Part shown: positions 49,441 through 63,393 of the stretch, piece by piece
Numbering within the stretch: the stretch's first letter is position 1
Layout: each line of letters starts with the position of its first letter
DNA from: a virus
Strand: one strand, 5' to 3'
IMG/VR virus record: IMGVR_UViG_3300042890_005556
DNA length: 64,000 nucleotides
Made by a program: the position numbers and the translations under genes
The notes under the pieces: generated by a model
Told to the model about the DNA's origin: nothing
The model's input: only the letters and a program-made list of their open reading frames with translations
Databases searched by the model: none

Positions 49441-49572
49441 TGTAGATTAAAGTGCTGTACTAACTAGCTCCAATACTAACATAATGGGGCGCGGTTGGGC
49501 GCAGGCTGTTACTCTTTAATCTGCATTTTAGAAGCCCAACCGCTCTCCCACATCGGTTGGGCTTCTTTTTTT
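49441..49572 (+). ncRNA. Candidate structured RNA with alternative terminator/antiterminator pairing
   Basis: Rod 49441-49525 with G-U pairs; 13-bp terminator stem 49530-49566 plus U-run; GCGGTTGGGC (49491-49500) can alternatively pair with 49534-49543. Confidence 0.5.
49530..49572 (+). terminator. Rho-independent terminator
   Basis: AGAAGCCCAACCG-11 nt loop-CGGTTGGGCTTCT-TTTTTT. Confidence 0.85.
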
Positions 49573-49867
49573 AGCAGTCCCATTTTTTCAGAGCACGGCA
49601 GATGGCCTTATCAGGGTCTTGTCTGCAGTCGATATTATGCATTTTCTTTTGTCCGCCCATCCTGGCGCAGAACGATTTGCGGCGTTTTGCCTTTTTGGGC
49701 GATTTTTTGGCTGCTTTACTAGATACAGGTGGTTTTAGGTTATGCCCTTTACTATTATAATGAGCACGGCCTTTGGAGTTCAAGCCACCTTCAGGGTTCT
49801 GAAAAGCTTTCTTGACACCCTCAAATATGTCTTCAAGGATGATTTCTACACGATCATCAAACAGCAT
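49571..49867 (-). CDS. Small basic protein of the T4-like-phage DUF6321-type family
   Basis: NPEGGLN.KGR..YN, NLKPPV, RRKSFCARM.G, AL.KW.C; AAGGAG RBS; acidic leader ending ILE/IFE. Confidence 0.75.
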   Translation of the reverse strand: MLFDDRVEIILEDIFEGVKKAFQNPEGGLNSKGRAHYNSKGHNLKPPVSSKAAKKSPKKAKRRKSFCARMGGQKKMHNIDCRQDPDKAICRALKKWDC

Positions 49868-50119
49868 GCGATTCTCCTTCAGATCAATCGAATAGTAGAG
49901 ACTTGTTATAATGGAGTCTGTTCTCTGCCAGAGGCAGCCAAAAACCAAAATGTAAATGGTCAAATTCGCGGGAGACTTCATCTAAAATATTCAAGAGCAT
50001 CACAATGTCTGTCATGACCATCTCCAATAATAGAGCAATGTTTAAAATATTTTAACCTTAAAATGTAAATATACGCAACGCATTCCCTTACTATCACTGC
50101 AGCTGTAGGAGATCAAAAC

Positions 50120-51361: not shown

Positions 51362-52180
51362 ATGAAACTGAACAATATACATGAAGCACTTGATACCAAG
51401 ACCCTTGGTTTAGGCGACACGAAGACTTATGTCATACCATCCAAAGACTACGACGACAAAAGATACGTCTACGCCAAAAGAGATGATAAAACCCAAAACA
51501 TGTATGCTGTGTTCTTCTCACCAGCTGAAATAACACACTCAACACCATACATAGCAGAAATAGTTAAAGTAAACCCGACAAGGGTCTACTCAATAGAATT
51601 AGTAACAGCACCTATAGATGACACTGCAAGAGATATCATGGACTACCCATGGTCATACTCAAAAACAGGAGCAGGCAACGCACCATCCGTATACAGATTC
51701 CTCATGTCATCTGTACAAGATTTCTTTTTAAATAAGATGAAGCCAGCGATAGTAAAATTCCATGGTTATACACCAGACATGAACCTAATATACGATATAG
51801 TTATGAAAAAATTCAGCGAAAAGTATAAAGACACAACATACGTCCCGTACTACAAAGATCTCTTTATAAACATGCAAACGGTAGAAAAAATCCAAAACCA
51901 AGAAGTCAAGAATGATATCCTTAATATTACTGGTATAGCTGGAGAACAATATAATAGAATGATCAGCAGATCAATGGCCGACAAAGACGAAGAAAGAACT
52001 GAAAGAAGAGATAGAAACAGCCCCGGAAAATACAGACCTATAGATTCCAGCAATGATACCAAGCCAAATGACTCAATCATGCCAAATGACTCAATCATGC
52101 CAAAGATTCAAGCTCTCGACCCAAAAAAGCGGAATAGTTCTTCCACCGACCCACAGAGGAAGCGTATAACGGCTTTCTGA
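51362..52180 (+). CDS. Paralog family member 1 (divergent), class A leader
   Basis: MKLNNIHE; KTGAGN..VY..LM..V.DFF; F.GYT.DM..IY. Confidence 0.8.
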   Translation: MKLNNIHEALDTKTLGLGDTKTYVIPSKDYDDKRYVYAKRDDKTQNMYAVFFSPAEITHSTPYIAEIVKVNPTRVYSIELVTAPIDDTARDIMDYPWSYSKTGAGNAPSVYRFLMSSVQDFFLNKMKPAIVKFHGYTPDMNLIYDIVMKKFSEKYKDTTYVPYYKDLFINMQTVEKIQNQEVKNDILNITGIAGEQYNRMISRSMADKDEERTERRDRNSPGKYRPIDSSNDTKPNDSIMPNDSIMPKIQALDPKKRNSSSTDPQRKRITAF

Positions 52181-53375
52181 CCTGTGATAAGCTAGCGGTT
52201 CTAACATTGCTTTTAGCCTTATGAAAATCTAGGCACGAAGACTCAAATCCTACGCCCACAAAATCAAGCAAAGCCGATACAGTATCCTCAAAACCATCTA
52301 TTAAATCCTCGTACGATAAATCAAACCAACTAATACCAATATTTTCCCAATGTTTAACTATTCTATCGAAATTTCGGAACTTGTTAGATATATTGCCAAA
52401 GTTGTTGGCCCATCTTATGACTGCAAAATTAGTCTGCCAGCAAGACAATGCAACGTCTCTCTTGTCCCTTCTGCAAAGAATAATCTTAGACTTAGGAAAT
52501 AAGATCTTTATGAACCCTACCATATTCACATTGTCAGGTAGCTTATCGACAAAATGTACACCATCTACATTTTCAGTATATTTCAGATATAGCTCAGAGC
52601 ATCTGGCTATATCAATATCATTGAATTCTTTCAATGTAGTAAAAGGCTTTGAAGATAAACTCCTAAAAATATTATAGATATGTGATAGTTCTCCACCACT
52701 CCCAATATGACTATGAGATGATAATATTTTTTCGACCAATGTCGTGCCGCTTCTCGGTAAACCAACCACGAATATCGGTCTAGTTGTACTATGACCAGCA
52801 AATTGAGATATGAACCTATTCGTATAGTTATTGACTGTTAGATTGGCTTCTATATCAGTTAATTTGGGATTATAGTCAGACTTTACATCATTGGCCTTTA
52901 CAAAATGATAATATGCTCTATCATATTGTGCAGATTTGTCAAACGAACAACCTAGTGCATAGTGCAGTATGTGATTAGGATTTTTTGATAATAATGACAA
53001 GCATGTTTTAATATCTTTCGGATCAAGCCTGGAGTGCGATGATTTCAGAAAGTATAGTGATTGCTCTTCCGGATATTGGGACTGTACTTCCTCTAGCGTA
53101 GCGTTAGCTTCTGGGTTGCCGGTCTCGTAGTATAATGATATTCTGCCGATTAGAGCGTTTAGGTTAGACGGTTCAGATGCAAGTGATAGATCATAGTGGT
53201 ATTGAGCTGATTCATGTTCACCCATTTCTTGATGATTTTTTGCTATCAGGCAGTTTAGTCTTGAGTCATCTGGATGTGCTTGTTTTGCTTTTTCTAGATA
53301 TTTTATTGCTTTTCTATAGTTGCGGTTTGTCTGTAATTGCTCTGCGGCATCAAGCATGTTGTTGAATTGATTCAT
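52095..53375 (-). CDS. TPR-repeat sulfotransferase
   Basis: N-terminal TPRs; PIFVVGLPRSGTTLVE, DKLPDN and RTAS..QVRKP.Y..S.GRW. Confidence 0.92.
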   Translation of the reverse strand: MNQFNNMLDAAEQLQTNRNYRKAIKYLEKAKQAHPDDSRLNCLIAKNHQEMGEHESAQYHYDLSLASEPSNLNALIGRISLYYETGNPEANATLEEVQSQYPEEQSLYFLKSSHSRLDPKDIKTCLSLLSKNPNHILHYALGCSFDKSAQYDRAYYHFVKANDVKSDYNPKLTDIEANLTVNNYTNRFISQFAGHSTTRPIFVVGLPRSGTTLVEKILSSHSHIGSGGELSHIYNIFRSLSSKPFTTLKEFNDIDIARCSELYLKYTENVDGVHFVDKLPDNVNMVGFIKILFPKSKIILCRRDKRDVALSCWQTNFAVIRWANNFGNISNKFRNFDRIVKHWENIGISWFDLSYEDLIDGFEDTVSALLDFVGVGFESSCLDFHKAKSNVRTASLSQVRKPLYASSVGRWKNYSAFLGRELESLA

Positions 53376-53417
53376 GCATTTATTTAGCTTATTAAACATA
53401 CATTATAGGAGATAGAG

Positions 53418-54266
53418 ATGAAGCTTTACAATATCATGGGCGGTGTTTTGTCAGAATGTACTAGTGTTGCTGTCACGATACAAAATAAAATCATATTAGC
53501 GAAAAACAGAGACAGAACATATTATCCAAAGCTTAAAATAATCAGAGAAATGATCAACGATATAGAGACATGTTATATGTATGATGTCGATACAGATTAT
53601 AGTGAAGGCATGAACGAAAAAGGCATAGGCATTGTCAACACCACATTGCAAGGCAAAGAAGATGAAAAAGAGACAAAGACAGTATCAAAGCACAAAAAGT
53701 TAAGTGCCGACGGTCACAAAATCAGAACAGCTCTTGGCATGACGGATGTAGATGAGATTATTAAGACGCTTGACTTATACAAAAGAGGACTTGGTGGGCA
53801 TACGACGATAGGCCACAAATCTGGCTACGTGAGCATCGAGAAATTAAGGATGGGCAAGCCGCACATCACAAAATATGATAAAAACGACATAATAGTAAGA
53901 ACTAACCATGGGATATTCTACCCTGATCAGGGCTACCAGCAAGGGTTAGACAGAGAATCAAGCTTGTCAAGAGCATTCCATGCTACGGCGGACGCCAAAG
54001 AAGCGACAACTCCGGAAGAATTGCTAGAATTGATGCGTACCCACAATGAGCCAGGTTTCTTAGAACCATATAGGACAAATTATAAAGTCTGGACCAGCAG
54101 CCAAATTTTATTAAATCTCACCGATCTTGAATTGACGCTTGTTATAGATGAGAACGCTAAGTTTCTTGGTGTTGAGGATAGGCTACCCAAGAATTACACA
54201 CCAAAAATAGACATAAACTTGTATGAATCTAAGATCTACATTGACACCAAGCCGATAAAGAAATGA
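53418..54266 (+). CDS. Ntn hydrolase (C45/choloylglycine-hydrolase-like) with short leader
   Basis: LSE|CTSV, LAKNRDR, EGMNEKG.GIVN and VRTNH. Confidence 0.8.
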   Translation: MKLYNIMGGVLSECTSVAVTIQNKIILAKNRDRTYYPKLKIIREMINDIETCYMYDVDTDYSEGMNEKGIGIVNTTLQGKEDEKETKTVSKHKKLSADGHKIRTALGMTDVDEIIKTLDLYKRGLGGHTTIGHKSGYVSIEKLRMGKPHITKYDKNDIIVRTNHGIFYPDQGYQQGLDRESSLSRAFHATADAKEATTPEELLELMRTHNEPGFLEPYRTNYKVWTSSQILLNLTDLELTLVIDENAKFLGVEDRLPKNYTPKIDINLYESKIYIDTKPIKK

Positions 54267-54399
54267 AATATAAGAAACCAATTATCGTGATGATATCTGT
54301 CATTGTATTACAGATACTATTCGGGTGGGACCCGAAGTTCACTTTAATCAACATAATTTGGTTATTGCTGTAGTAAAAATACTTATAGGAGATAAAAAC

Positions 54400-55032
54400 A
54401 TGAGACTGTCAGTAATATCAGAAGTAGCTGACCCAAGATCTACAAATATGGATGGAATAGAAATAAGTAAACATGATCCAGACATAACTTATTCTTTTAC
54501 AGACCCAAGATCACCAGACTTACTTTATAGTGTCATATTTGAAGCAGCAGAAATTGGGTACCAAAATTGCCCGCATTACAATGATATTAGACAAGTCACA
54601 AACGAAAACTCATATAAGTTAGACCTAACAGTAGCAAAAGACGGTTCACCAAACTGGTCGTTCGATAAAACCGGTAGAGGGAATTTTGCTTTTGTATACG
54701 GTAAGCTAATGACATGCGTTATTGACTTCTTAATAACAAGAGATGTGGAAGCACCATTCATAGTATTTTCTGGTTTCAGTAAAGACATGGAACTCATTTA
54801 TAAGAGATTAATGGATCGGTTAAATAACGAATACCCAGATTATACATATTACCCATATAGTGATGGCCTTTACATTTCATCTAGAGCTATCGAAAAGATA
54901 GAAGATGAGGACATCAAAGATGAAATCTTTGAGGCTATAAGTTCCCATTCTAGGGAAAGAGATGAAAGACACAAAATGATCAGAAAAGAGAAACAAGAAA
55001 AAAACCCGCGCAGTCGTGGCAACGTTTTATAA
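54400..55032 (+). CDS. Paralog family member 2, class A leader
   Basis: MRLSVISEVADP; KTGRGNFAFVYGKLMTCVIDF; FSGFSKDME. Confidence 0.85.
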   Translation: MRLSVISEVADPRSTNMDGIEISKHDPDITYSFTDPRSPDLLYSVIFEAAEIGYQNCPHYNDIRQVTNENSYKLDLTVAKDGSPNWSFDKTGRGNFAFVYGKLMTCVIDFLITRDVEAPFIVFSGFSKDMELIYKRLMDRLNNEYPDYTYYPYSDGLYISSRAIEKIEDEDIKDEIFEAISSHSRERDERHKMIRKEKQEKNPRSRGNVL

Positions 55033-55041
55033 GGGAAAATC

Positions 55042-55674
55042 ATGAAAATCTCGACGATAAACGAAGTGGCAAACCCAAGCGACACCGAGCTTGGAGACAT
55101 GGAAGTGGGAGTAGAAGACGGTGATTTTTTATATAAGTTCATTGACCCAAGGCATGATGATGTCATTTATAGAGTCGCATTCATGAAAGAAAGCACGCCA
55201 CACGGTCTGACATACAGCAGAGAAATATTAGCAGTCAATCCAGGCAAAACAATCAGCATAGGTCTTACTCACCAGAAAATCAATGAAACTGGCTTCGAAC
55301 GCCATTCTAAGACAGGTAAAGGAAATTTTGCTTTCATTTACAGCAAGCTAATGGCTTGTGTTATTGACTATTTTGCTACTAGAGACAATAACCCGCCGTT
55401 TGTGACGTTTTCTGGCTACACTAAGGATATGGATAGTGTATATGAAAAAATCATGGAGAGATTAAACAAGAAATATCCCAGCAAGGCTTATTTTCCATAT
55501 AGCGGTGGTGTTTACGTTTCATCTGACACTGTTTATAATATCGAAGACCAAGGTGTTAAGATGGGCATTCTAAATAAGATTAGCAAACAGTCTGGCCTCA
55601 ATAAAGCTGAGATCGAGCGCATCAAGGCAGTCAAGAGAAGCAGAGATCAAGATTTTCAAGGCAATTATTTCTGA
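55042..55674 (+). CDS. Paralog family member 3, class A leader
   Basis: MKISTINEVANP; KTGKGNFAFIYSKLMACVIDYF. Confidence 0.85.
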   Translation: MKISTINEVANPSDTELGDMEVGVEDGDFLYKFIDPRHDDVIYRVAFMKESTPHGLTYSREILAVNPGKTISIGLTHQKINETGFERHSKTGKGNFAFIYSKLMACVIDYFATRDNNPPFVTFSGYTKDMDSVYEKIMERLNKKYPSKAYFPYSGGVYVSSDTVYNIEDQGVKMGILNKISKQSGLNKAEIERIKAVKRSRDQDFQGNYF

Positions 55675-55705
55675 AAATATACAGTGAAAACTCTGGGAGA
55701 CATTC

Positions 55706-56683
55706 ATGAGCATCGATCCGCGCATAATTGCTAGGCTTATAACCGAAGATCCAGATCATTTTAATGAAGTATATGCTAGGCATCTCATTAATGAGATCGT
55801 AGACCCTGGTAATACTGATCTCGGAGACATAGAAGTAGAAGAGGAGGATCGTCATGGGTCTCTCAACACTACGTATACGTTCAGCGATCCAAGGCATAAA
55901 TATATGCAATATGGCGATAGTTACGATATGGGCTATATTGTGAGTTTTAAATCCAGATTGGTAGGTTCTGATCAAGATTATCAGAATGTCGGGCAGGGCT
56001 TCGAGGAACAGATTCCACTTGGCGCACGGGTCGTTAATATAGATTTAGAAAGCACCGCTCAAGGGTATAGCAAAACCAAGAAGGGCAATTTCGCCTTTGT
56101 TTACAGCAGATTGATGACCTGTGTGGTAGACTACTTCCACAATAAAGGCAACGATCCAATGTTTGTGCAATTTAAAGGGTATTCTAAAGATATGGATAGT
56201 GTCTATCTTAAAATCATGGATAGGCTGGCCAAGAAATACCCTGATAGAGGATACTATCCATTTAAATATGGAGCGTTCATCTTAAAATCTGCTGTAAGCA
56301 ATATCGAAGATGACACTGTCAAAATGCGATTATTGGATGCTATAGAAAACCAATCTAAACTGTTAAAATCCGGAATCGCTGATTATAAAAGTGAAAAAAG
56401 AAGAATTGCTGCGGCACGTGGAAATGAATACAATGCCGATGAGGACGATGAAGATGATGATTATGATGATGACTATGTAGTAACACCAGAAGAGCAGGCA
56501 GCAAGGCTGAGGGGGCTGCTTAGTATGATGCCGCCAGTGCCGGGTTCACCGCATGAACGCATGGCTCTCAGCATTTTACCACCTGAACCGGGCTCTGCCC
56601 ACGAACAGTTCTTGCTAAATTACCGACCAGTTCCTGGTTCTGCCCATGAGCAATGGCTAAACAGCCGCCAACAAAGCAGATAA
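55706..56683 (+). CDS. Paralog family member 4, class B leader
   Basis: MSIDPRIIARLITEDPDHFN; KT.KGNFAFVYSRLMTCVVDYF; acidic tract; three P.PGS.HE repeats. Confidence 0.85.
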   Translation: MSIDPRIIARLITEDPDHFNEVYARHLINEIVDPGNTDLGDIEVEEEDRHGSLNTTYTFSDPRHKYMQYGDSYDMGYIVSFKSRLVGSDQDYQNVGQGFEEQIPLGARVVNIDLESTAQGYSKTKKGNFAFVYSRLMTCVVDYFHNKGNDPMFVQFKGYSKDMDSVYLKIMDRLAKKYPDRGYYPFKYGAFILKSAVSNIEDDTVKMRLLDAIENQSKLLKSGIADYKSEKRRIAAARGNEYNADEDDEDDDYDDDYVVTPEEQAARLRGLLSMMPPVPGSPHERMALSILPPEPGSAHEQFLLNYRPVPGSAHEQWLNSRQQSR

Positions 56684-56704
56684 AACACCAAACGGAGCCC
56701 TCTC

Positions 56705-57610
56705 ATGAGTATCGACCCGCGCATAATCGCAAAGCTAATAACCGAAGATCCTAATCATTTTAATGAAGCATATGAGAAAAAGCTTCTTAATGAGATTTTA
56801 GACCCAGGCAACACTGATCTTGGTGATATTGAAGTAAGAGAAATGGGTCCACGTACTATATATAATTTCAGCGATCCGAGGCACGATGCTGACTATATAG
56901 TAGAATTTCACACAAAACGGTATTATAACCATTACGACGTGAATGGCCTCGACAATGCGCAAGTAGTCGATATAGTATTAAAAATCGATGATTATAATCG
57001 CTTTGCAGCGACTGGTAAAGGCAACTTCGCTTTTGTCTATAGCAGATTAATGACCTGCGTCGTTGATTACTTCCACACTAGAGGTAACGATCAAGAATTA
57101 GTACAATTTAGTGGATATTCGACTGATATGGACAGCGTCTACAATAAAATCATAGACAGACTAGCTAAGAAATACCCTGACAGAGTTTATTACCCATATA
57201 GGAAAAGCATGTACATCTCAAAGTCCACTATCGATAATATCGAAGATGACGACGCGAAAATGCAAATCCTACAAGCTATCGATAATCAAACTAAGATGCT
57301 CAAATCCGAAATCTCATCTTATAAAAGCGCTAAAAGACAAAGCGCCAGGGACAGGAGAGAACAACCAGCGGCACCGAGATGGAATTACGATAGCAGCATC
57401 CAAGACAATAATGATGATCCTCAAGCTTCAGTGGGTGAATATTCCGGTTTTGATGACCCGATTTCTGGTGAACCATTATCGATGTATGAAATCCAGAATC
57501 CATTATATCATCCAGAAACAGGTGAAGAAATCGGAACAAACGAAGAATTCGAAGCAGCAATAGAATGGTACCGATCACGGATGAATGTTAGCAGAGAGCA
57601 AAGACGATGA
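56705..57610 (+). CDS. Paralog family member 5, class B leader
   Basis: MSIDPRIIAKLITEDPNHFN; TGKGNFAFVYSRLMTCVVDYF. Confidence 0.85.
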   Translation: MSIDPRIIAKLITEDPNHFNEAYEKKLLNEILDPGNTDLGDIEVREMGPRTIYNFSDPRHDADYIVEFHTKRYYNHYDVNGLDNAQVVDIVLKIDDYNRFAATGKGNFAFVYSRLMTCVVDYFHTRGNDQELVQFSGYSTDMDSVYNKIIDRLAKKYPDRVYYPYRKSMYISKSTIDNIEDDDAKMQILQAIDNQTKMLKSEISSYKSAKRQSARDRREQPAAPRWNYDSSIQDNNDDPQASVGEYSGFDDPISGEPLSMYEIQNPLYHPETGEEIGTNEEFEAAIEWYRSRMNVSREQRR

Positions 57611-57855
57611 ACCACTTTACAGAAGAACAAGAACAAAAACTCACTCAATGCGGTTGGACCAAACATACCAACCCCGGATCAATCCATTGGGAAAAAAGTC
57701 AAAATAATGGGCGATTTATTATTACCACCAGAGATATAGGTGGCAGAGTATGGTTCATCTATGATTTTGACTGCCCTGGCCTGTTCGAAGATTTCTACCC
57801 GACCAAGACATTCACCAAGGTAGAAGCCCTGCTAAAATTCATTGAAAAAGAATAA
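57607..57855 (+). CDS. Small hypothetical protein
   Basis: ATGA overlap with the upstream stop. Confidence 0.65.
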   Translation: MNHFTEEQEQKLTQCGWTKHTNPGSIHWEKSQNNGRFIITTRDIGGRVWFIYDFDCPGLFEDFYPTKTFTKVEALLKFIEKE

Positions 57856-57895
57856 TCGGGTAAATTTATAAAGTAACCAATTTTTGGAGATACCA

Positions 57896-58525
57896 ATGAA
57901 CGTCGACCCTCGTATTATTGCCGATATGATGACTGAAGATCCAGATCATTTCAACATTCTCAATGAGGATAGCTTCGTGAGGCTATACGATTTGGGTAGA
58001 AGTTTAGATTATGAACTTAGAGAGAAAGGCGTGGGAACCCCTGTTTATATGCTTGCTATACAGAAATACATGAACAGCCATCAGACTGAAATTGACGAGT
58101 TAGCTGGCCGCATAACTAATATAAATGATTTAAAAAAGTTTATCGATTCAGCTGCTACAAAGGGTAAAATTCCTAGCCTGATAGAGATTCAGGAAAGGCT
58201 TGCAGAAAGAGAAGCATACAATCGTGGACAGGGGCAGGCGACTCAAGCTCAGCAGCCCCAAGCTCAGCCCGGCAATTTTACCAAACGCAGCGCATTCATG
58301 GTAAGACTGGTGGTGCTGGCAAATCCTGGTGTTCAAATACCAGAAACAGCCGAAGGATATAATCAAATGGGTCGTAGCGCCGGATTCCTCAAATACACCA
58401 CCCAAAACTCCTCATGGGTCACCTTAATATCTAACAACCAATTCCAAGAAATGCTGAAAGACGTGCGCCAAGAATTACGGGAGCAAATTGTCACTGAACT
58501 AGCCCGCTACGTCTCAAGATCATAA
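57896..58525 (+). CDS. Hypothetical protein with class B leader on an unrelated body
   Basis: MNVDPRIIADMMTEDPDHFNILNE; GGAG RBS. Confidence 0.8.
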   Translation: MNVDPRIIADMMTEDPDHFNILNEDSFVRLYDLGRSLDYELREKGVGTPVYMLAIQKYMNSHQTEIDELAGRITNINDLKKFIDSAATKGKIPSLIEIQERLAEREAYNRGQGQATQAQQPQAQPGNFTKRSAFMVRLVVLANPGVQIPETAEGYNQMGRSAGFLKYTTQNSSWVTLISNNQFQEMLKDVRQELREQIVTELARYVSRS

Positions 58526-59095
58526 TCACAGAGATCTGGGACCGCCTGGTCTTGGTGGCATCGGTCTGGCCGGTGGTCTCACCGGAGACATATCACGCGG
58601 ATCAATGGGTCTAATAGGTGGGCTGGGCTGAACAGGCATTGGACCAGGGTCAACAGCCGGTGTGGTAGGCTTAGGCTGGTGTGGGCCGGGTCTACTAGGA
58701 GCCGGATACTTGCTACTCAGCCACTCCTTATTCTGCTGAATCCAAACGCCCATCTTATTAGAATAGACTTCCATATCCTTGTGATACTTAACAAGATCAA
58801 TATTATATTGCACCATAGCTAATTGATACGCTTCAAATGCCTTATCAGTGTTCTCTTTAATACCATATGCTAAAATAACATTGGCGTTACACCAAGTCTT
58901 AGCATCTGCTAAACTACTAAATGAGTTTCTAAGACTAAATGGCACTGGTCCGATGCTTGTAGTTAGCATCGCAATCCACTCTTGTGACGCAATTGTGCCA
59001 TCTGTAGGGACAATTGTTGCAGAAATTTCTTTATATTTCTGCTGCATTGAGCCATCTTGATTTACTATCCATGGTTCGAGTGGCAACATTTTCAC
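58526..59095 (-). CDS. Hypothetical protein with Pro-rich C-terminus
   Basis: Helical middle region, Pro/Arg-rich tail. Confidence 0.7.
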   Translation of the reverse strand: MKMLPLEPWIVNQDGSMQQKYKEISATIVPTDGTIASQEWIAMLTTSIGPVPFSLRNSFSSLADAKTWCNANVILAYGIKENTDKAFEAYQLAMVQYNIDLVKYHKDMEVYSNKMGVWIQQNKEWLSSKYPAPSRPGPHQPKPTTPAVDPGPMPVQPSPPIRPIDPRDMSPVRPPARPMPPRPGGPRSL

Positions 59096-59147
59096 AACCC
59101 TTTTGTAATAGTTTAGTAGAGCCAGTTATATCTACGATATATTTATA

Positions 59148-59783
59148 TCAAAAAATGTTGCCACGATTAAACTCGCTTCTCTCGCGCTTCATCTTCTTAT
59201 ACATCTTGAGCTTTTCCTCACGATCAGTTGTTCCATTTTTAATTATATGAAATATCTCAGCTTTGACCTTCTCATCATCTATCTTATTAATCACCTTTGC
59301 AGAAATGTAGAGATCATCAGTGTACGGGTAAAACGAGAACTCAGGATACTCACTGTTCAAACGATCCATAATTCTCTTATAAACCAACTCCATATCTTTA
59401 GTATAGCCAGAAAACATCACAAACGGAGCCTCAGTTCCCCTTGTCAGAAAGAAATCTATAACACACGACATGAGCTTACCATACACAAATCCAAAATTCC
59501 CGGCCCCGGTCTTATCAAAAGACCAGAACGGCGTACCGTCCTTAATGACCTGCAGATCTAATTTATAGGAGCTTGAGCTCTTATCGGCGGCCTTCACAAT
59601 TTGATCATAGTAGGGACAATAGGTATGAATACCGATTGCCTCAAACACGACATTGTATGAATATTGAGGAAATTTCGGGTCACTAAATGTATACGTCATG
59701 CCATCGCCGTTTGAGTTTGCTTCGACCCCATCCATACTTGACATTCTCGGATTTGCGACTTCTGATATGACCGATAACTTCAT
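59148..59783 (-). CDS. Paralog family member 6, class A leader
   Basis: MKLSVISEVANP; KTGAGNFGFVYGKLMSCVIDFF. Confidence 0.85.
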   Translation of the reverse strand: MKLSVISEVANPRMSSMDGVEANSNGDGMTYTFSDPKFPQYSYNVVFEAIGIHTYCPYYDQIVKAADKSSSSYKLDLQVIKDGTPFWSFDKTGAGNFGFVYGKLMSCVIDFFLTRGTEAPFVMFSGYTKDMELVYKRIMDRLNSEYPEFSFYPYTDDLYISAKVINKIDDEKVKAEIFHIIKNGTTDREEKLKMYKKMKRERSEFNRGNIF

Positions 59784-59808
59784 GGCTAGCTCCCCTTTAT
59801 GGTATATT

Positions 59809-60486
59809 TTAATAGATTTCGCCAAGATCCTGAGGGTTTCGAGCTCTCTTGAGTTCTTTTATTTTTTTAAGTTTATTAGCCTGTCTTAAGCCTTGAGTGT
59901 TATCAAGAGCCATCTTCCGATAAGCAACGTCTCTTATGTTATCGATAGCACTTAATGAGACATAGATATGGTTAAGATGATCGGGGAGTTGCTCAGGCTC
60001 ATAGGGACGCATAGCCATTGATGGGTACTCAGCATTAAGGCGATCCATTATCCTTTTATAAACCAGCTCCATATCTTTAGTATAGCCAGAAAACTGCATG
60101 AACAGCACTTTGGTGCCTCTCGTAACAAAGAAATCTACAGCACACGCCATTAACTTCCCGTATACAAAACCAAAGTTCCCTTTTCCTGTTTTATCGAATG
60201 GGCGGCTGTCTTCACTGGCGTCGGATACATCTTCTGATTTAAGGACCAACGTGTACGAAACTCTGTCTTTATTATACATTTTAAGGTGGATGTAGGCAGG
60301 GTCAGACCCTAGTCTATAATCCAGGAAATTATGTGATTTCATAAAGGAGACACTGTAGAGTGTATCTGGGAAGTTGGGATCTTTGAATTCATAGAGGACG
60401 CTGCCTGTGCCTTGTTCTGACACGTCAACTCCATCCATATTTGATAATTTAGGATTAGCTACTTCTGATATGACTGATAGTTTCAT
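59809..60486 (-). CDS. Paralog family member 7, class A leader
   Basis: MKLSVISEVANP; KTGKGNFGFVYGKLMACAVDFF. Confidence 0.85.
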   Translation of the reverse strand: MKLSVISEVANPKLSNMDGVDVSEQGTGSVLYEFKDPNFPDTLYSVSFMKSHNFLDYRLGSDPAYIHLKMYNKDRVSYTLVLKSEDVSDASEDSRPFDKTGKGNFGFVYGKLMACAVDFFVTRGTKVLFMQFSGYTKDMELVYKRIMDRLNAEYPSMAMRPYEPEQLPDHLNHIYVSLSAIDNIRDVAYRKMALDNTQGLRQANKLKKIKELKRARNPQDLGEIY

Positions 60487-60542
60487 TTTAGATCCCCTTA
60501 TGGTATTTTTTCCAGCTAGAAATACCTCCCGTACATAAGCTC

Positions 60543-61421
60543 ATGAGACACATATCAAACGATTACAACGACCTGATACACCCCGACGACTACCTACTAG
60601 ACACCGACCTGCTCGAAAAACTAATCAAAGCAAACGACCGAATAAACCTAACCCCAAAAACATCAGAAATAAAAATACTCGCCAAAGTCAGAACCCGCTC
60701 CAACCAAACCAGAGAATCACTCAACAGAATCCAAACAGCACTCACCCCCTGCCAATTCACAGACTGGCTAAAATATCGCAAAATAAACCAAACCCACAAC
60801 ATCCACAGCATCGACTTCACCAAACTAAAAATAACCGACCTATACGACTATTACATATGCCCAGACGACGTATATCTTGACCGCTACGGCGACAGACCAG
60901 TAATAGGACCAGTCTTCCCTGACTATAGAAACGGCAACCTCGCCGGAATCTGCATAAGAAACCTAAGCGATGAAAAAGAATACGCAGCTGACGTCAAATA
61001 CACCTTCAGCAACTTTGGCTGGTACCTCTACGGCTATGACGACTATAACTCGAACGACCCGATCCATATAGTCGAAGGAGTATTCGACGCCATAGCTCTA
61101 AGAGCATACGGTCACAACGCAATAGCAATAGGATGCAGCACCCCATCCCCCATGCAACTAGCCATGCTCCTACACAAATTCAAAAACCTAAGCATGTGCC
61201 TAGATAACGACCTAGCCGGACACATCGGAGCCCTAAGATGCAAACTCATGCTCAACATACCCATCTACACAATTGTCGGTTATAAAGACATAGCGCAATG
61301 CTGGGAAGCAGAACAACAACTCGAACTCGCCGAGCTAACCATATCTGACCTCAAAATACTCGTCTCAGAATACTCTAAACATGCCTATGACGATAACCGT
61401 GACCTCCGTTACAACATATGA
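60543..61421 (+). CDS. DnaG-like TOPRIM primase domain protein
   Basis: LYG, IVEGVFDAIAL and CLDNDLAG motifs. Confidence 0.8.
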   Translation: MRHISNDYNDLIHPDDYLLDTDLLEKLIKANDRINLTPKTSEIKILAKVRTRSNQTRESLNRIQTALTPCQFTDWLKYRKINQTHNIHSIDFTKLKITDLYDYYICPDDVYLDRYGDRPVIGPVFPDYRNGNLAGICIRNLSDEKEYAADVKYTFSNFGWYLYGYDDYNSNDPIHIVEGVFDAIALRAYGHNAIAIGCSTPSPMQLAMLLHKFKNLSMCLDNDLAGHIGALRCKLMLNIPIYTIVGYKDIAQCWEAEQQLELAELTISDLKILVSEYSKHAYDDNRDLRYNI

Positions 61422-61458
61422 GAAAATATAACTTATAACCTCTTCTGGAGAATCAGAA

Positions 61459-62268
61459 ATGTCTGTAGACGTACGTTTTATCGCCGAATTCATGACCGAA
61501 GACATCGATATTTTTAATGATACTGTCTTATTAGAAGACGCTGTCCCCGACATCACCCGCCGCGAATTTCTAAAAAAAGTAATGGGCTATACCACGGCTG
61601 TTGCAATACAAAACCCAGCGGCCTTACTACAGAAAATCGCCACAGGGCAAGCAACGGGCGCAGCAATGGTCGCAGTCCGCAAAACACTAGCCAACATGTC
61701 AAATGAAGAATTATCAGGAACCCCCGAAGAGTTATGGCTCCCATACATTTCAACTAGTAGACTGGCGCAGTTCAGATCTGAACACCCAGAACATTTCGAT
61801 CGCGAAGTACTCCACAAGTTCTATACCCTCTGTGAATACGTAAACAGTGGACGCGCCACAATTCCAGGCACAGCAGAAAGAATGATGAGCTTAATGAAAG
61901 CTCGCGCTAGCGCAAATCCAACAGCTATCTTAAACGGTGCGTTTTCAAATACTGGCATGTGGACAGATGGAAGCAACCCATTCTTATTTGGTGACACTGA
62001 TATGAACCACGTCATCAAAACAGCCAAAAGATACGGCATAAACCTAGACACTGATATAGTGAAGTCATTCTACGAGGATCTCGCCAAACAGGAAGCCGAG
62101 CGAAAAGCGGAAGAAGAAGCCGAACGGGAAGAAATGCGAACTGCCGACAAAGACCAATGGGCCGCAACAGTCCAAGGCGGAATCGACCCAGACGACGAAT
62201 ACGGCGCACAACGCTACAAAGACCGCCAATTCGAAAATAGAAACCGGTCTAAAAAAGTCATATTCTAA
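61459..62268 (+). CDS. Hypothetical protein with class B leader followed by a twin-arginine motif
   Basis: MSVDVRFIAEFMTEDIDIFND..LLE|DAVPDITRREFLK. Confidence 0.8.
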   Translation: MSVDVRFIAEFMTEDIDIFNDTVLLEDAVPDITRREFLKKVMGYTTAVAIQNPAALLQKIATGQATGAAMVAVRKTLANMSNEELSGTPEELWLPYISTSRLAQFRSEHPEHFDREVLHKFYTLCEYVNSGRATIPGTAERMMSLMKARASANPTAILNGAFSNTGMWTDGSNPFLFGDTDMNHVIKTAKRYGINLDTDIVKSFYEDLAKQEAERKAEEEAEREEMRTADKDQWAATVQGGIDPDDEYGAQRYKDRQFENRNRSKKVIF

Positions 62269-62277
62269 AAAACGCCT

Positions 62278-62475
62278 ATGCAATGCTCACGATGCAAAAA
62301 AGAAGTCGCCAAAGCCTTTGCGGTTGAATCAAAGGCTCTTTGCATCAATTGTTTGACAAATGAAGAGATGAACGAACTAGTCAAACGACTAGATGATTTT
62401 TGGAAGCAAAAATCTTGCCTACTTGAATCAATTAACCACCAAACACAACACGCATCTCAGGCGGCAACGCCTTAA
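62278..62475 (+). CDS. Small CxxC-CxxC zinc-finger protein
   Basis: CSRC...CINC. Confidence 0.5.
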   Translation: MQCSRCKKEVAKAFAVESKALCINCLTNEEMNELVKRLDDFWKQKSCLLESINHQTQHASQAATP

Positions 62476-62821
62476 TATTCACCAACCTAGCAGGGATCGA
62501 CTTCAACCCAGAATCAATAGCCTTATTCGCACGGTGATTGCCATCCAAAACATACCTAAACACACCATCATCATCAACCACAATAATAATAGGGTACCTC
62601 ACATCCGCAACACCCAACCTACCTGACTCAATACCACCACTAGACTTCCTAATAATAATCTCCTCCAACTTACCCACAGGAACATCAACAACAGGAAGAT
62701 CACCAATAACATCCAAAAGCTGAGCCAACGTCACACGCCTCCCATCATCCAACTCCCAAGCAGTCGAACCAAAATCCTCAACCAAAATCCTATAACCATC
62801 AGTAAAACAATGAACCCTCAT
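62432..62821 (-). CDS. ParB/Srx N-terminal-like domain protein
   Basis: AD..YPIIIV...VLDGNHR..KA motif. Confidence 0.75.
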   Translation of the reverse strand: MRVHCFTDGYRILVEDFGSTAWELDDGRRVTLAQLLDVIGDLPVVDVPVGKLEEIIIRKSSGGIESGRLGVADVRYPIIIVVDDDGVFRYVLDGNHRANKAIDSGLKSIPARLVNIKALPPEMRVVFGG

Positions 62822-62883
62822 ATCCCATACCCCCAAAAGTCACACAAGCTCAATATACAATAAATTTAACCACAAAGCGACAA

Positions 62884-63393
62884 TCAACCCCTACTAGAAA
62901 CCGGACTCCCATCAAAAACCAAAAACGGCGAATTCATAGACCACTCACCCTCACCCCAATTACCAGCACCATCCACATGCTGAAAATTAAACCGACGCTG
63001 CAAAAACTCAGCCAACTTACCATTCACCACCTCACACCCCATAAAAAGATCACCATCATAAGCACCCTTTAAAGAAAAATACTCACCAATAGCAGCCTTA
63101 ATTAACTTAGGACCAATCAAAAAACTCCTATACAACGGAGCCACAACAATATCAACACTAAAAACATGACCATAAGACTCATCATCAGAACTAGACACCT
63201 TACCCCAAACACACCCCACAGGCTTATCCCCCAAAAAAGCAACAAAAAGCAACTCAGAATCCCTACTAACATAAATCTCATCACTCGTAAAATCACCACA
63301 AGCCTTATACACTAACCCATCCTCATCATCATCAGAACTATAATAAACCACCCGAACATCACTAACAGACTCACATATAAAAGACAACCTCAT
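62884..63393 (-). CDS. GNAT acetyltransferase with class A leader
   Basis: MRLSFICE; VGCV, DIVVAP.YR...IG..LI and L..FL.R.F motifs. Confidence 0.75.
   Translation of the reverse strand: MRLSFICESVSDVRVVYYSSDDDEDGLVYKACGDFTSDEIYVSRDSELLFVAFLGDKPVGCVWGKVSSSDDESYGHVFSVDIVVAPLYRSFLIGPKLIKAAIGEYFSLKGAYDGDLFMGCEVVNGKLAEFLQRRFNFQHVDGAGNWGEGEWSMNSPFLVFDGSPVSSRG

Follow-up and report, generated by a model that had tools for sequence, protein, structure and literature searches.

Seven paralogous genes between positions 51,362 and 60,486 of the virus record IMGVR_UViG_3300042890_005556 (hereafter the window, the whole 64,000-nucleotide stretch of DNA that was analysed) probably specify internal head proteins that a jumbo phage of the T4 superfamily packages into its virions, and packaging coupled to removal of an N-terminal leader is about as probable. 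Each paralog would start with a short propeptide at its N-terminus (MKLxxIxE, or the longer, two-part MSIDPRIIAxLITE...L(I/L)NE), which would act like the T4 capsid targeting sequence in bringing the protein into the prohead scaffolding core. A gp21-type prohead protease would then cut the propeptide off after (I/L)xE, and the mature domain of 23-34 kDa would remain alongside the DNA inside the head and probably exit with it at infection. Here and below, we infer the cleavage and ejection of these proteins, their location in the head and any enzymatic role they may have.

Seven paralogs and their N-terminal leader

The seven open reading frames (ORFs) lie on both strands and share a core that can be aligned over its whole length, with T..GN...Y..LM....D, F.G...DM...Y and Y..P invariant and with 22-56% identity between pairs, p2/p6 and p4/p5 being the closest. 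A family hidden Markov model (HMM) detects them at E values of 1e-46 to 9e-64, and the copy number is exactly seven because the next-best ORF in the window reaches only E = 1. The alignment and the model bear out what the earlier note had described, namely seven genes on both strands with a conserved core, and its variable tails are found as well (the repeats of p1 and p4 below). In the ORF list, two starts are artefacts at upstream TTG/GTG codons; conserved ATG codons put the starts at 51362, 54400 and, for a minus-strand gene, 59783.

51362..52180, plus strand: p1, 272 residues; leader MKLNNIHE; basic tail with an NDSIMP repeat
54400..55032, plus strand: p2, 210 residues; leader MRLSVISE
55042..55674, plus strand: p3, 210 residues; leader MKISTINE
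55706..56683, plus strand: p4, 325 residues; two-part leader MSIDPRIIARLITE...LINE; tail with an acidic tract and three P(V/E)PGS(P/A)HE repeats
56705..57610, plus strand: p5, 301 residues; two-part leader MSIDPRIIAKLITE...LLNE; acidic tail
59148..59783, minus strand: p6, 211 residues; leader MKLSVISE; the protein used for the structure model
59809..60486, minus strand: p7, 225 residues; leader MKLSVISE
59760..59783, minus strand: example of a class A leader (putative propeptide and protease site), 8 codons ending I-S-E

A leader ending in (I/L)xE is present on all seven paralogs. The opening 24 bases of p1, p2, p3 and p7 are likewise a class A leader, and the two-part leader with two (I/L)xE sites (class B) is carried by p4 and p5 and by two unrelated genes at 57896-58525 and 61459-62268. 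Class B follows the pattern M.[IV]D[PV]R[IF]IA..[MI]TE, with the second (I/L)xE about 8-16 residues further on. In an alignment of 85 family members clustered at 50% identity, the leader Glu is kept in 84, is preceded two residues earlier by I or L in 75, and is exactly residue 8 in 45. In the predicted model of p6 the leader is disordered, with a predicted local distance difference test (pLDDT) score of 48 for residues 1-10 against 89.5 overall. The same leaders also open four unrelated neighbours of the paralogs, listed further below: an Ntn hydrolase, one canonical GNAT and two proteins that belong to no known family.

Internal head proteins of phage T4 carry a capsid targeting sequence that takes them into the core of the prohead, and gp21 removes their propeptides (PMC5694885; PMC3012670), with Alt being cut at ITE-6 (PMC5694885). 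In the T4 record, Alt begins MELITELFD, and its cleavage site, MELITE↓LFD (the arrow marks the cut, proven in Alt and predicted in the family), closely matches, position by position on either side of the cut, the family consensus xLIxE↓VFD. The T4 proteins ipII and ipIII both begin MKTYQEFIAE, a common leader that ends IAE as the window leaders end (I/L)xE. A short (I/L)xE leader is common to otherwise unrelated proteins in T4 (IPI, IPII, IPIII and Alt) as it is in the window, and in T4 too the genes for internal proteins are clustered and variable. The likeness to Alt is limited to the leader, over which 8 residues align; comparison of the N-terminal domain of T4 Alt, or of the Alt-like protein of Vibrio phage ValKK3, with the family was not significant (E 0.06-0.18), with the leader alone aligning, and kinship of these domains is a lead only. 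The mature window domain also differs from the T4 internal proteins in being larger and not basic, and its cleavage and packaging are predictions.

A second known system is that of phages phiKZ and SPN3US, whose heads contain multi-copy, diverged paralogs with identical N-terminal propeptides cut after Glu, in copy numbers that vary between phages (PMC5694885). The window locus is likewise multi-copy and diverged, with leaders ending in Glu. The phiKZ/SPN3US proteins (pfam12699 family A, gp53/gp54) belong to another fold family and another phage lineage, and their protease motif is A/S-x-E rather than I/L-x-E; no pfam12699 match was found among the seven paralogs or the 85 members.

The motif is not confined to N-termini. 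Two to five units are fused in tandem in some relatives (P0019, P0061 and P0104), and in such multi-unit relatives (I/L)xE↓VFD recurs at every junction after the first unit. A search for longer fused forms found none, which is weak evidence. The tandem and junction-bearing proteins are the following.

P0019: 3 units; junction QINE↓VFDRPS
P0104: about 5 units; junction INE↓VFD
P0061: 2 units; tandem form with the motif at the junction
Atu_ph07 gp483: 2 units; junction NLTE↓LFDT
ValKK3 ORF276: junction NLTE↓AFDRPS

Relatives in cultured phages and their presence in virions

Neither Pfam (E <= 1) nor PHROG gave a match to any of the seven paralogs, and the 85 aligned members also had no match in Pfam (E <= 0.01) or PHROG. 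A profile search of 1.84 billion representative proteins detected 100 relatives at E <= 1e-3, with 66 at E <= 1e-10, and the wider family, comprising 100 metagenome clusters, is known only from phages. Against 50,697 GenBank phages, tblastn with a window paralog, P0036 and P0019 found nothing, as did megablast with 40-64 kb of the window, and two scans of IMG/VR gave no relatives; an exact 40-mer taken from the window was also absent from IMG/VR. Two large proteins, P0063 (3301 residues) and P0079 (2201 residues), were rejected as members, their scores being summed 6-10 bit matches to one beta-hairpin in repeat proteins.

The connection to cultured phages runs through the Pfam domain DUF6934 (PF22028), whose cut-off is 27 bits. 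P0104 scores 54.2 bits and gp483 of phage Atu_ph07 28.1 bits against this model, and P0019 scores 21 bits; none of the seven paralogs or the 85 aligned members passes it. A bridge alignment of cultured-phage and DUF6934-positive units, including those of gp483 and P0104, matched the window family in a profile-profile comparison; the match spans 123 columns, among them the leader, and has a probability of 98.3% (E 1.3e-14). In addition, the neighbours of the protein in the ESM Atlas are viral clusters, and in one of these DUF6934 is present on 20% of the members. These profile comparisons indicate that the family is a divergent DUF6934-related branch that the Pfam model misses. We found no paper giving DUF6934 a function, the only full-text match being a Flavobacterium genome report.

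In Atu_ph07, a RaK2-related jumbo phage, the homologs are the adjacent paralogs gp482 (AUZ95241) and gp483 (AUZ95242), which match the window family with hhalign (E 2.4e-5) and with Foldseek against BFVD (E 7e-4). Both are in the virion proteome determined by electrospray ionisation tandem mass spectrometry (ESI-MS/MS), gp482 (predicted mass 31.68 kDa) with 9 peptides and 36.7% coverage and gp483 (predicted mass 33.72 kDa) with 16 peptides and 55.8% coverage (PMC6102473, Table S5); gp numbers were matched to accessions via gp472, gp492 and computed masses. An LxE↓LFD opens each of their units, comparable to the leader motif of the window. The units are compact (about 145 residues) and without the long C-terminal helix and the tails; gp483 is a two-unit fusion, and gp482 has a different N-terminal domain. 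Both proteins peak in gel slice 12, alongside proteins predicted at 12.8-16.4 kDa, and most Atu_ph07 proteins of 25-35 kDa peak in slices 7-8 (PMC6102473). A computed cut at the motif gives 16.3 + 16.9 kDa for gp483 and about 15 + 16.1 kDa for gp482, and the half-size migration, as inferred from the summary table, fits processing at the motif. The phage also encodes a Peptidase_S77 (T4 gp21-type) protease (E 2.4e-22).

A third virion-associated homolog is EST35_0349 of phage PA5oct, a protein of 141 residues that starts MHLFE↓LFD and matches the family with hhalign (E 2.4e-5). Its annotation is that of a structural protein identified by ESI-MS/MS. A second PA5oct match was dropped, being antisense to annotated genes and containing a stop codon.

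The KVP40-like Vibrio phage ValKK3, which is T4-like, contains six DUF6934-like places, of which three form a tandem; its members are ORF145-147 (the tandem), ORF203 and ORF276 (L027:1565-3815; L028:1354-3899). ORF145 and ORF147 have the common leader MKFSEYQNELTE↓AF(D/N)R, of which ORF146 has the variant MKFSEYQRLNE, and ORF276 scores 38.5 bits against the family HMM. All are annotated as hypothetical only, and several have extra C-terminal domains. ORF203 sits between an Alt-like ADP-ribosyltransferase and a DNA ligase, and one member lies three genes from a gene annotated "prohead protease inhibitor" and five from the major capsid gene. A weak DUF6934 match in ORF202, at the N-terminus of the Alt-like protein (15.7 bits), and a BFVD match to a Citrobacter phage ADP-ribosylase (E 0.04) are leads only.

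Whole-virion mass spectrometry cannot locate a protein within the particle, and the homologs could in principle belong to the tail, the whiskers or the outside of the capsid and not to the interior of the head; Atu_ph07 and its relatives bear elaborate tail appendages (PMC6102473), and gp482/483 have a tail-fibre gene about 7 kb away. We regard this placement as very improbable, as (I/L)xE cleavage is a head-specific event in T4, T4 Alt, which is packaged in the head, has a matching leader, and the ValKK3 member just described has the prohead protease inhibitor and major capsid genes as near neighbours.

Several observations weigh against the proposal that the seven paralogs are packaged and processed head proteins. 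The packaging evidence comes from homologs and not from the window proteins themselves, and it puts those homologs in virions, not specifically in heads. The half-size position of gp482 and gp483 comes from a summary table without peptide maps. The window contains no gp21-like protease (Peptidase_S77) gene. In RaK2 and CBB there is no family-profile match and no homolog, and these two phages and LIMEstone1 have no DUF6934 match. The isoelectric points of the mature proteins range from 4.8 to 8.9 and are not uniformly basic like those of T4 internal proteins. Finally, the residues that follow the leader Glu, (V/L/A)FD.P, are also conserved, and the motif could be the first structural element of the domain.

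Predicted fold and its resemblance to GNAT enzymes

An AlphaFold model of p6 (59148-59783), built with the 85-sequence alignment, has an overall pLDDT of 89.5 and a predicted template modelling score of 0.84, and is poorly defined only at residues 1-10 and over the last 15 or so. Its N-terminal half comprises three strands and one short helix, and its C-terminus is a long, charged helix that is rich in K and R towards the end. When compared with the PDB, 167 of the 1000 top Foldseek-ranked chains reached Z >= 5, and the top 50 listed were nearly all GNAT. The best match was human Naa60 (5hgz; Z 6.3 over 122 residues, root-mean-square deviation 3.5), and phage Mu Mom (8bv8; Z 5.5), EctA (6sk1) and TacT (7f36) were also matched; Z never reached 8, and Foldseek against the PDB gave E 0.01. 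A PDB sequence profile search returned only a gp32 match, which was judged to be chance. Among the predicted viral structures of BFVD, Foldseek gave 17 matches at E <= 1e-3 with template modelling scores of about 0.45-0.56, including the two adjacent Atu_ph07 proteins and large phage proteins with deaminase, zeta-toxin and ParB/Srx domains.

The model moderately resembles GNAT proteins in the predicted topology of its C-terminal half (a strand and a glycine-rich loop, then helix, strand, helix and further strands), whereas GNATs have helices alpha1-alpha2 where the model has three strands and a short helix. The GNAT motif A, Q/RxxGxG/A before helix alpha3, is absent from the window family, which reads (K)TGxGN, and no Acetyltransf/GNAT HMM matched the seven paralogs or the 85 members. 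On this model, the GNAT likeness of the mature domain is one of topology only. The earlier note had likened the core to GNAT and DUF6934-type domains; the resemblance holds for DUF6934 at the superfamily level and, at a modest Z of 5-6.3, for GNAT in the fold search, and it does not extend to a match with either model.

The (K)TGxGN loop precedes the long helix 97-114, at the position where GNATs bind the pyrophosphate of coenzyme A (CoA), and is kept in the window subfamily and not family-wide. In the 85 members, with positions numbered as in p6, Y101 and Y135 are invariant, and E8, Y31, Y43, N96, V100 and F124 are at least 90% kept. Because the loop and the two invariant tyrosines fall at the modelled equivalent of the GNAT acyl-CoA site, a ligand-binding or acyl-transfer role of the mature domain is possible, if doubtful.

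These features bear on two further explanations of the family. One is that the paralogs are unpackaged, cytoplasmic GNAT-like enzymes, with xIxE-VFD as the first structural or catalytic element and the Glu possibly a general base. Such a role would account for conservation running past the Glu, a Glu base with a Tyr acid is frequent in GNAT enzymes, and GNATs dominate the fold search. It is nevertheless improbable, since the leader segment is disordered in an otherwise well-defined model, the same 8-10 residues open unrelated folds, the distance from the Glu to Met1 is fixed in most members, and three homologs from two cultured phages were found in virions.

The other explanation accepts packaging and dispenses with catalysis, the paralogs being bulk internal components of the head, comparable to the paralog families of inner-body or ejection proteins in phiKZ and SPN3US. 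Their task would be to buffer or organise the scaffold core or the DNA in the head, and their GNAT-like fold would be inert. Giant-phage heads do hold abundant paralog families with common propeptides (PMC5694885), and the K/R-rich end of the C-terminal helix, the lack of a GNAT model match and the lack of family-wide conservation of the TGxGN loop (only N96, V100, Y101, F124 and Y135 are kept) all agree with it. On the other hand, the spread of isoelectric points shows no uniform DNA-binding charge, the structural look-alikes are fused to deaminase, zeta-toxin or ParB/Srx domains, and single copies are dispensable and turn over between strains (see below), which fits accessory and not architectural roles. 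We consider it the most plausible of the alternatives, though clearly less likely than leader-targeted, processed head proteins.

A broader proposal, unlikely as it stands, is that the DUF6934-like domain represents a widespread and hitherto unrecognised class of capsid-delivered GNAT-like enzymes of T4-superfamily and jumbo phages. As single units or polyproteins, they would be released by the protease at (I/L)xE↓(V/L/A)FD and would, after injection, acylate paralog-specific host or defence targets; the T4 Alt N-terminus would perhaps be a distant member.

Neighbouring genes, strain variation and significance

The neighbours that carry the leaders without any relationship to the paralog family are as follows.

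53418..54266, plus strand: Ntn-hydrolase/AAT-family protein (PF03417, E 1.7e-6); leader MKLYNIMGGVLSE, with Cys directly after L-S-E
57896..58525, plus strand: protein of no known family; class B leader MNVDPRIIADMMTE...ILNE; no paralog-family match
61459..62268, plus strand: protein of no known family; class B leader MSVDVRFIAEFMTE...LLE; no paralog-family match
62884..63393, minus strand: canonical GNAT acetyltransferase (Acetyltransf_1, 28.7 bits, above cut-off); class A leader MRLSFICE

The GNAT at 62884-63393 aligns to the paralog family over the 10-residue leader only, and may be a second, unrelated acetyltransferase-fold protein that is packaged. In the Ntn hydrolase, a cut after the Glu would expose the N-terminal nucleophile Cys, and the prohead protease could therefore activate this enzyme.

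Other features of the locus were observed alongside these. A TPR and sulfotransferase protein (52095-53399, minus strand; Sulfotransfer_3, E 3e-29) lies inside the leader-gene locus and has no leader. In a DUF6321 protein (49571-49981, minus strand; E 1.2e-20), an internal Met gives the N-terminus MLFDDRVEIILE, which ends I-L-E and is leader-like. The sequence AAAATA(C/T) occurs 20-35 bases upstream of five leader genes, at 54376, 55674, 59810 (minus strand), 60509 (minus strand) and 61423, and is followed at each by a strong GGAG-type ribosome site. With 38 occurrences in the window, it is at most a candidate for a shared promoter of these genes.

Selection and gene content were compared across related strains represented by metagenome contigs L001-L008, in which orthologs of the paralogs are 90-99% identical in protein. 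For six of the seven paralogs, the pairwise ratio of nonsynonymous to synonymous substitution rates (dN/dS) between orthologs in sister contigs is 0.08-0.25, with 0.15-0.18 for p1, 0.12-0.24 for p3, 0.09-0.14 for p4, 0.11-0.14 for p5 and 0.08-0.12 for p7. These six are under purifying selection, and the decay that had earlier been raised as a contrary outcome is not what the ratios show. The p6 protein is 100% identical in three sister contigs (L001-L003) in which its neighbours differ by 5-10%; gene conversion or a recent sweep may be the cause.

Gene content varies among strains that are otherwise 90-98% identical. In L003, p1 is deleted, leaving an in-frame remnant (L003:12966-13133, minus strand) that fuses the first four p1 codons to the p1 tail, and p2 is absent from L003 and L006. 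The protein P0002 (L006:4554-5183) has the p2 leader (MRLSVISEVADP) on the p3 body in a strain without p2, which suggests that it is the product of paralog recombination through the shared, conserved 5' ends. A two-gene insert (255 residues and 162-165 residues) lies upstream of p2/p3 in two strains (L003:9340-10734 and L004:558-1977), and the Toprim/class-B block at 60511-62881 is substituted in L001 (L001:3156-3560). With copies gained, lost and recombined from one near-identical strain to the next, the locus resembles in its behaviour the hyperplastic loci that encode the internal proteins of T-even phages.

The earlier note had proposed a diversified set of injected effectors, each with a different target. 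This proposal carries as far as packaging, through the T4-like leader and protease sites and the homologs in virions, and not on to effector action. Leader-targeted internal proteins and head paralog families are kinds already known. What is new is a DUF6934-like, GNAT-like domain family with a fixed (I/L)xE↓(V/L/A)FD start and with polyprotein forms, of which we found no earlier description.

Of all phage molecules, the host cell first meets the proteins that are packaged and injected, and those of T4 include anti-restriction and host-takeover factors. To our knowledge, few packaged-protein families have been defined outside T4 and the phiKZ group. If the seven paralogs are indeed packaged and processed in this way, DUF6934, so far an orphan in Pfam, would gain its first biological context, as would about a hundred clusters from metagenomes, and a leader (I/L)xE followed by (V/L/A)FD would provide a sequence rule for recognising packaged cargo in uncultured jumbo phages. 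Tandem-unit polyproteins cut by a prohead protease would be unusual among tailed phages, and in phages of the T4-like and RaK2-like kinds the leader itself could be used to tag proteins for packaging.

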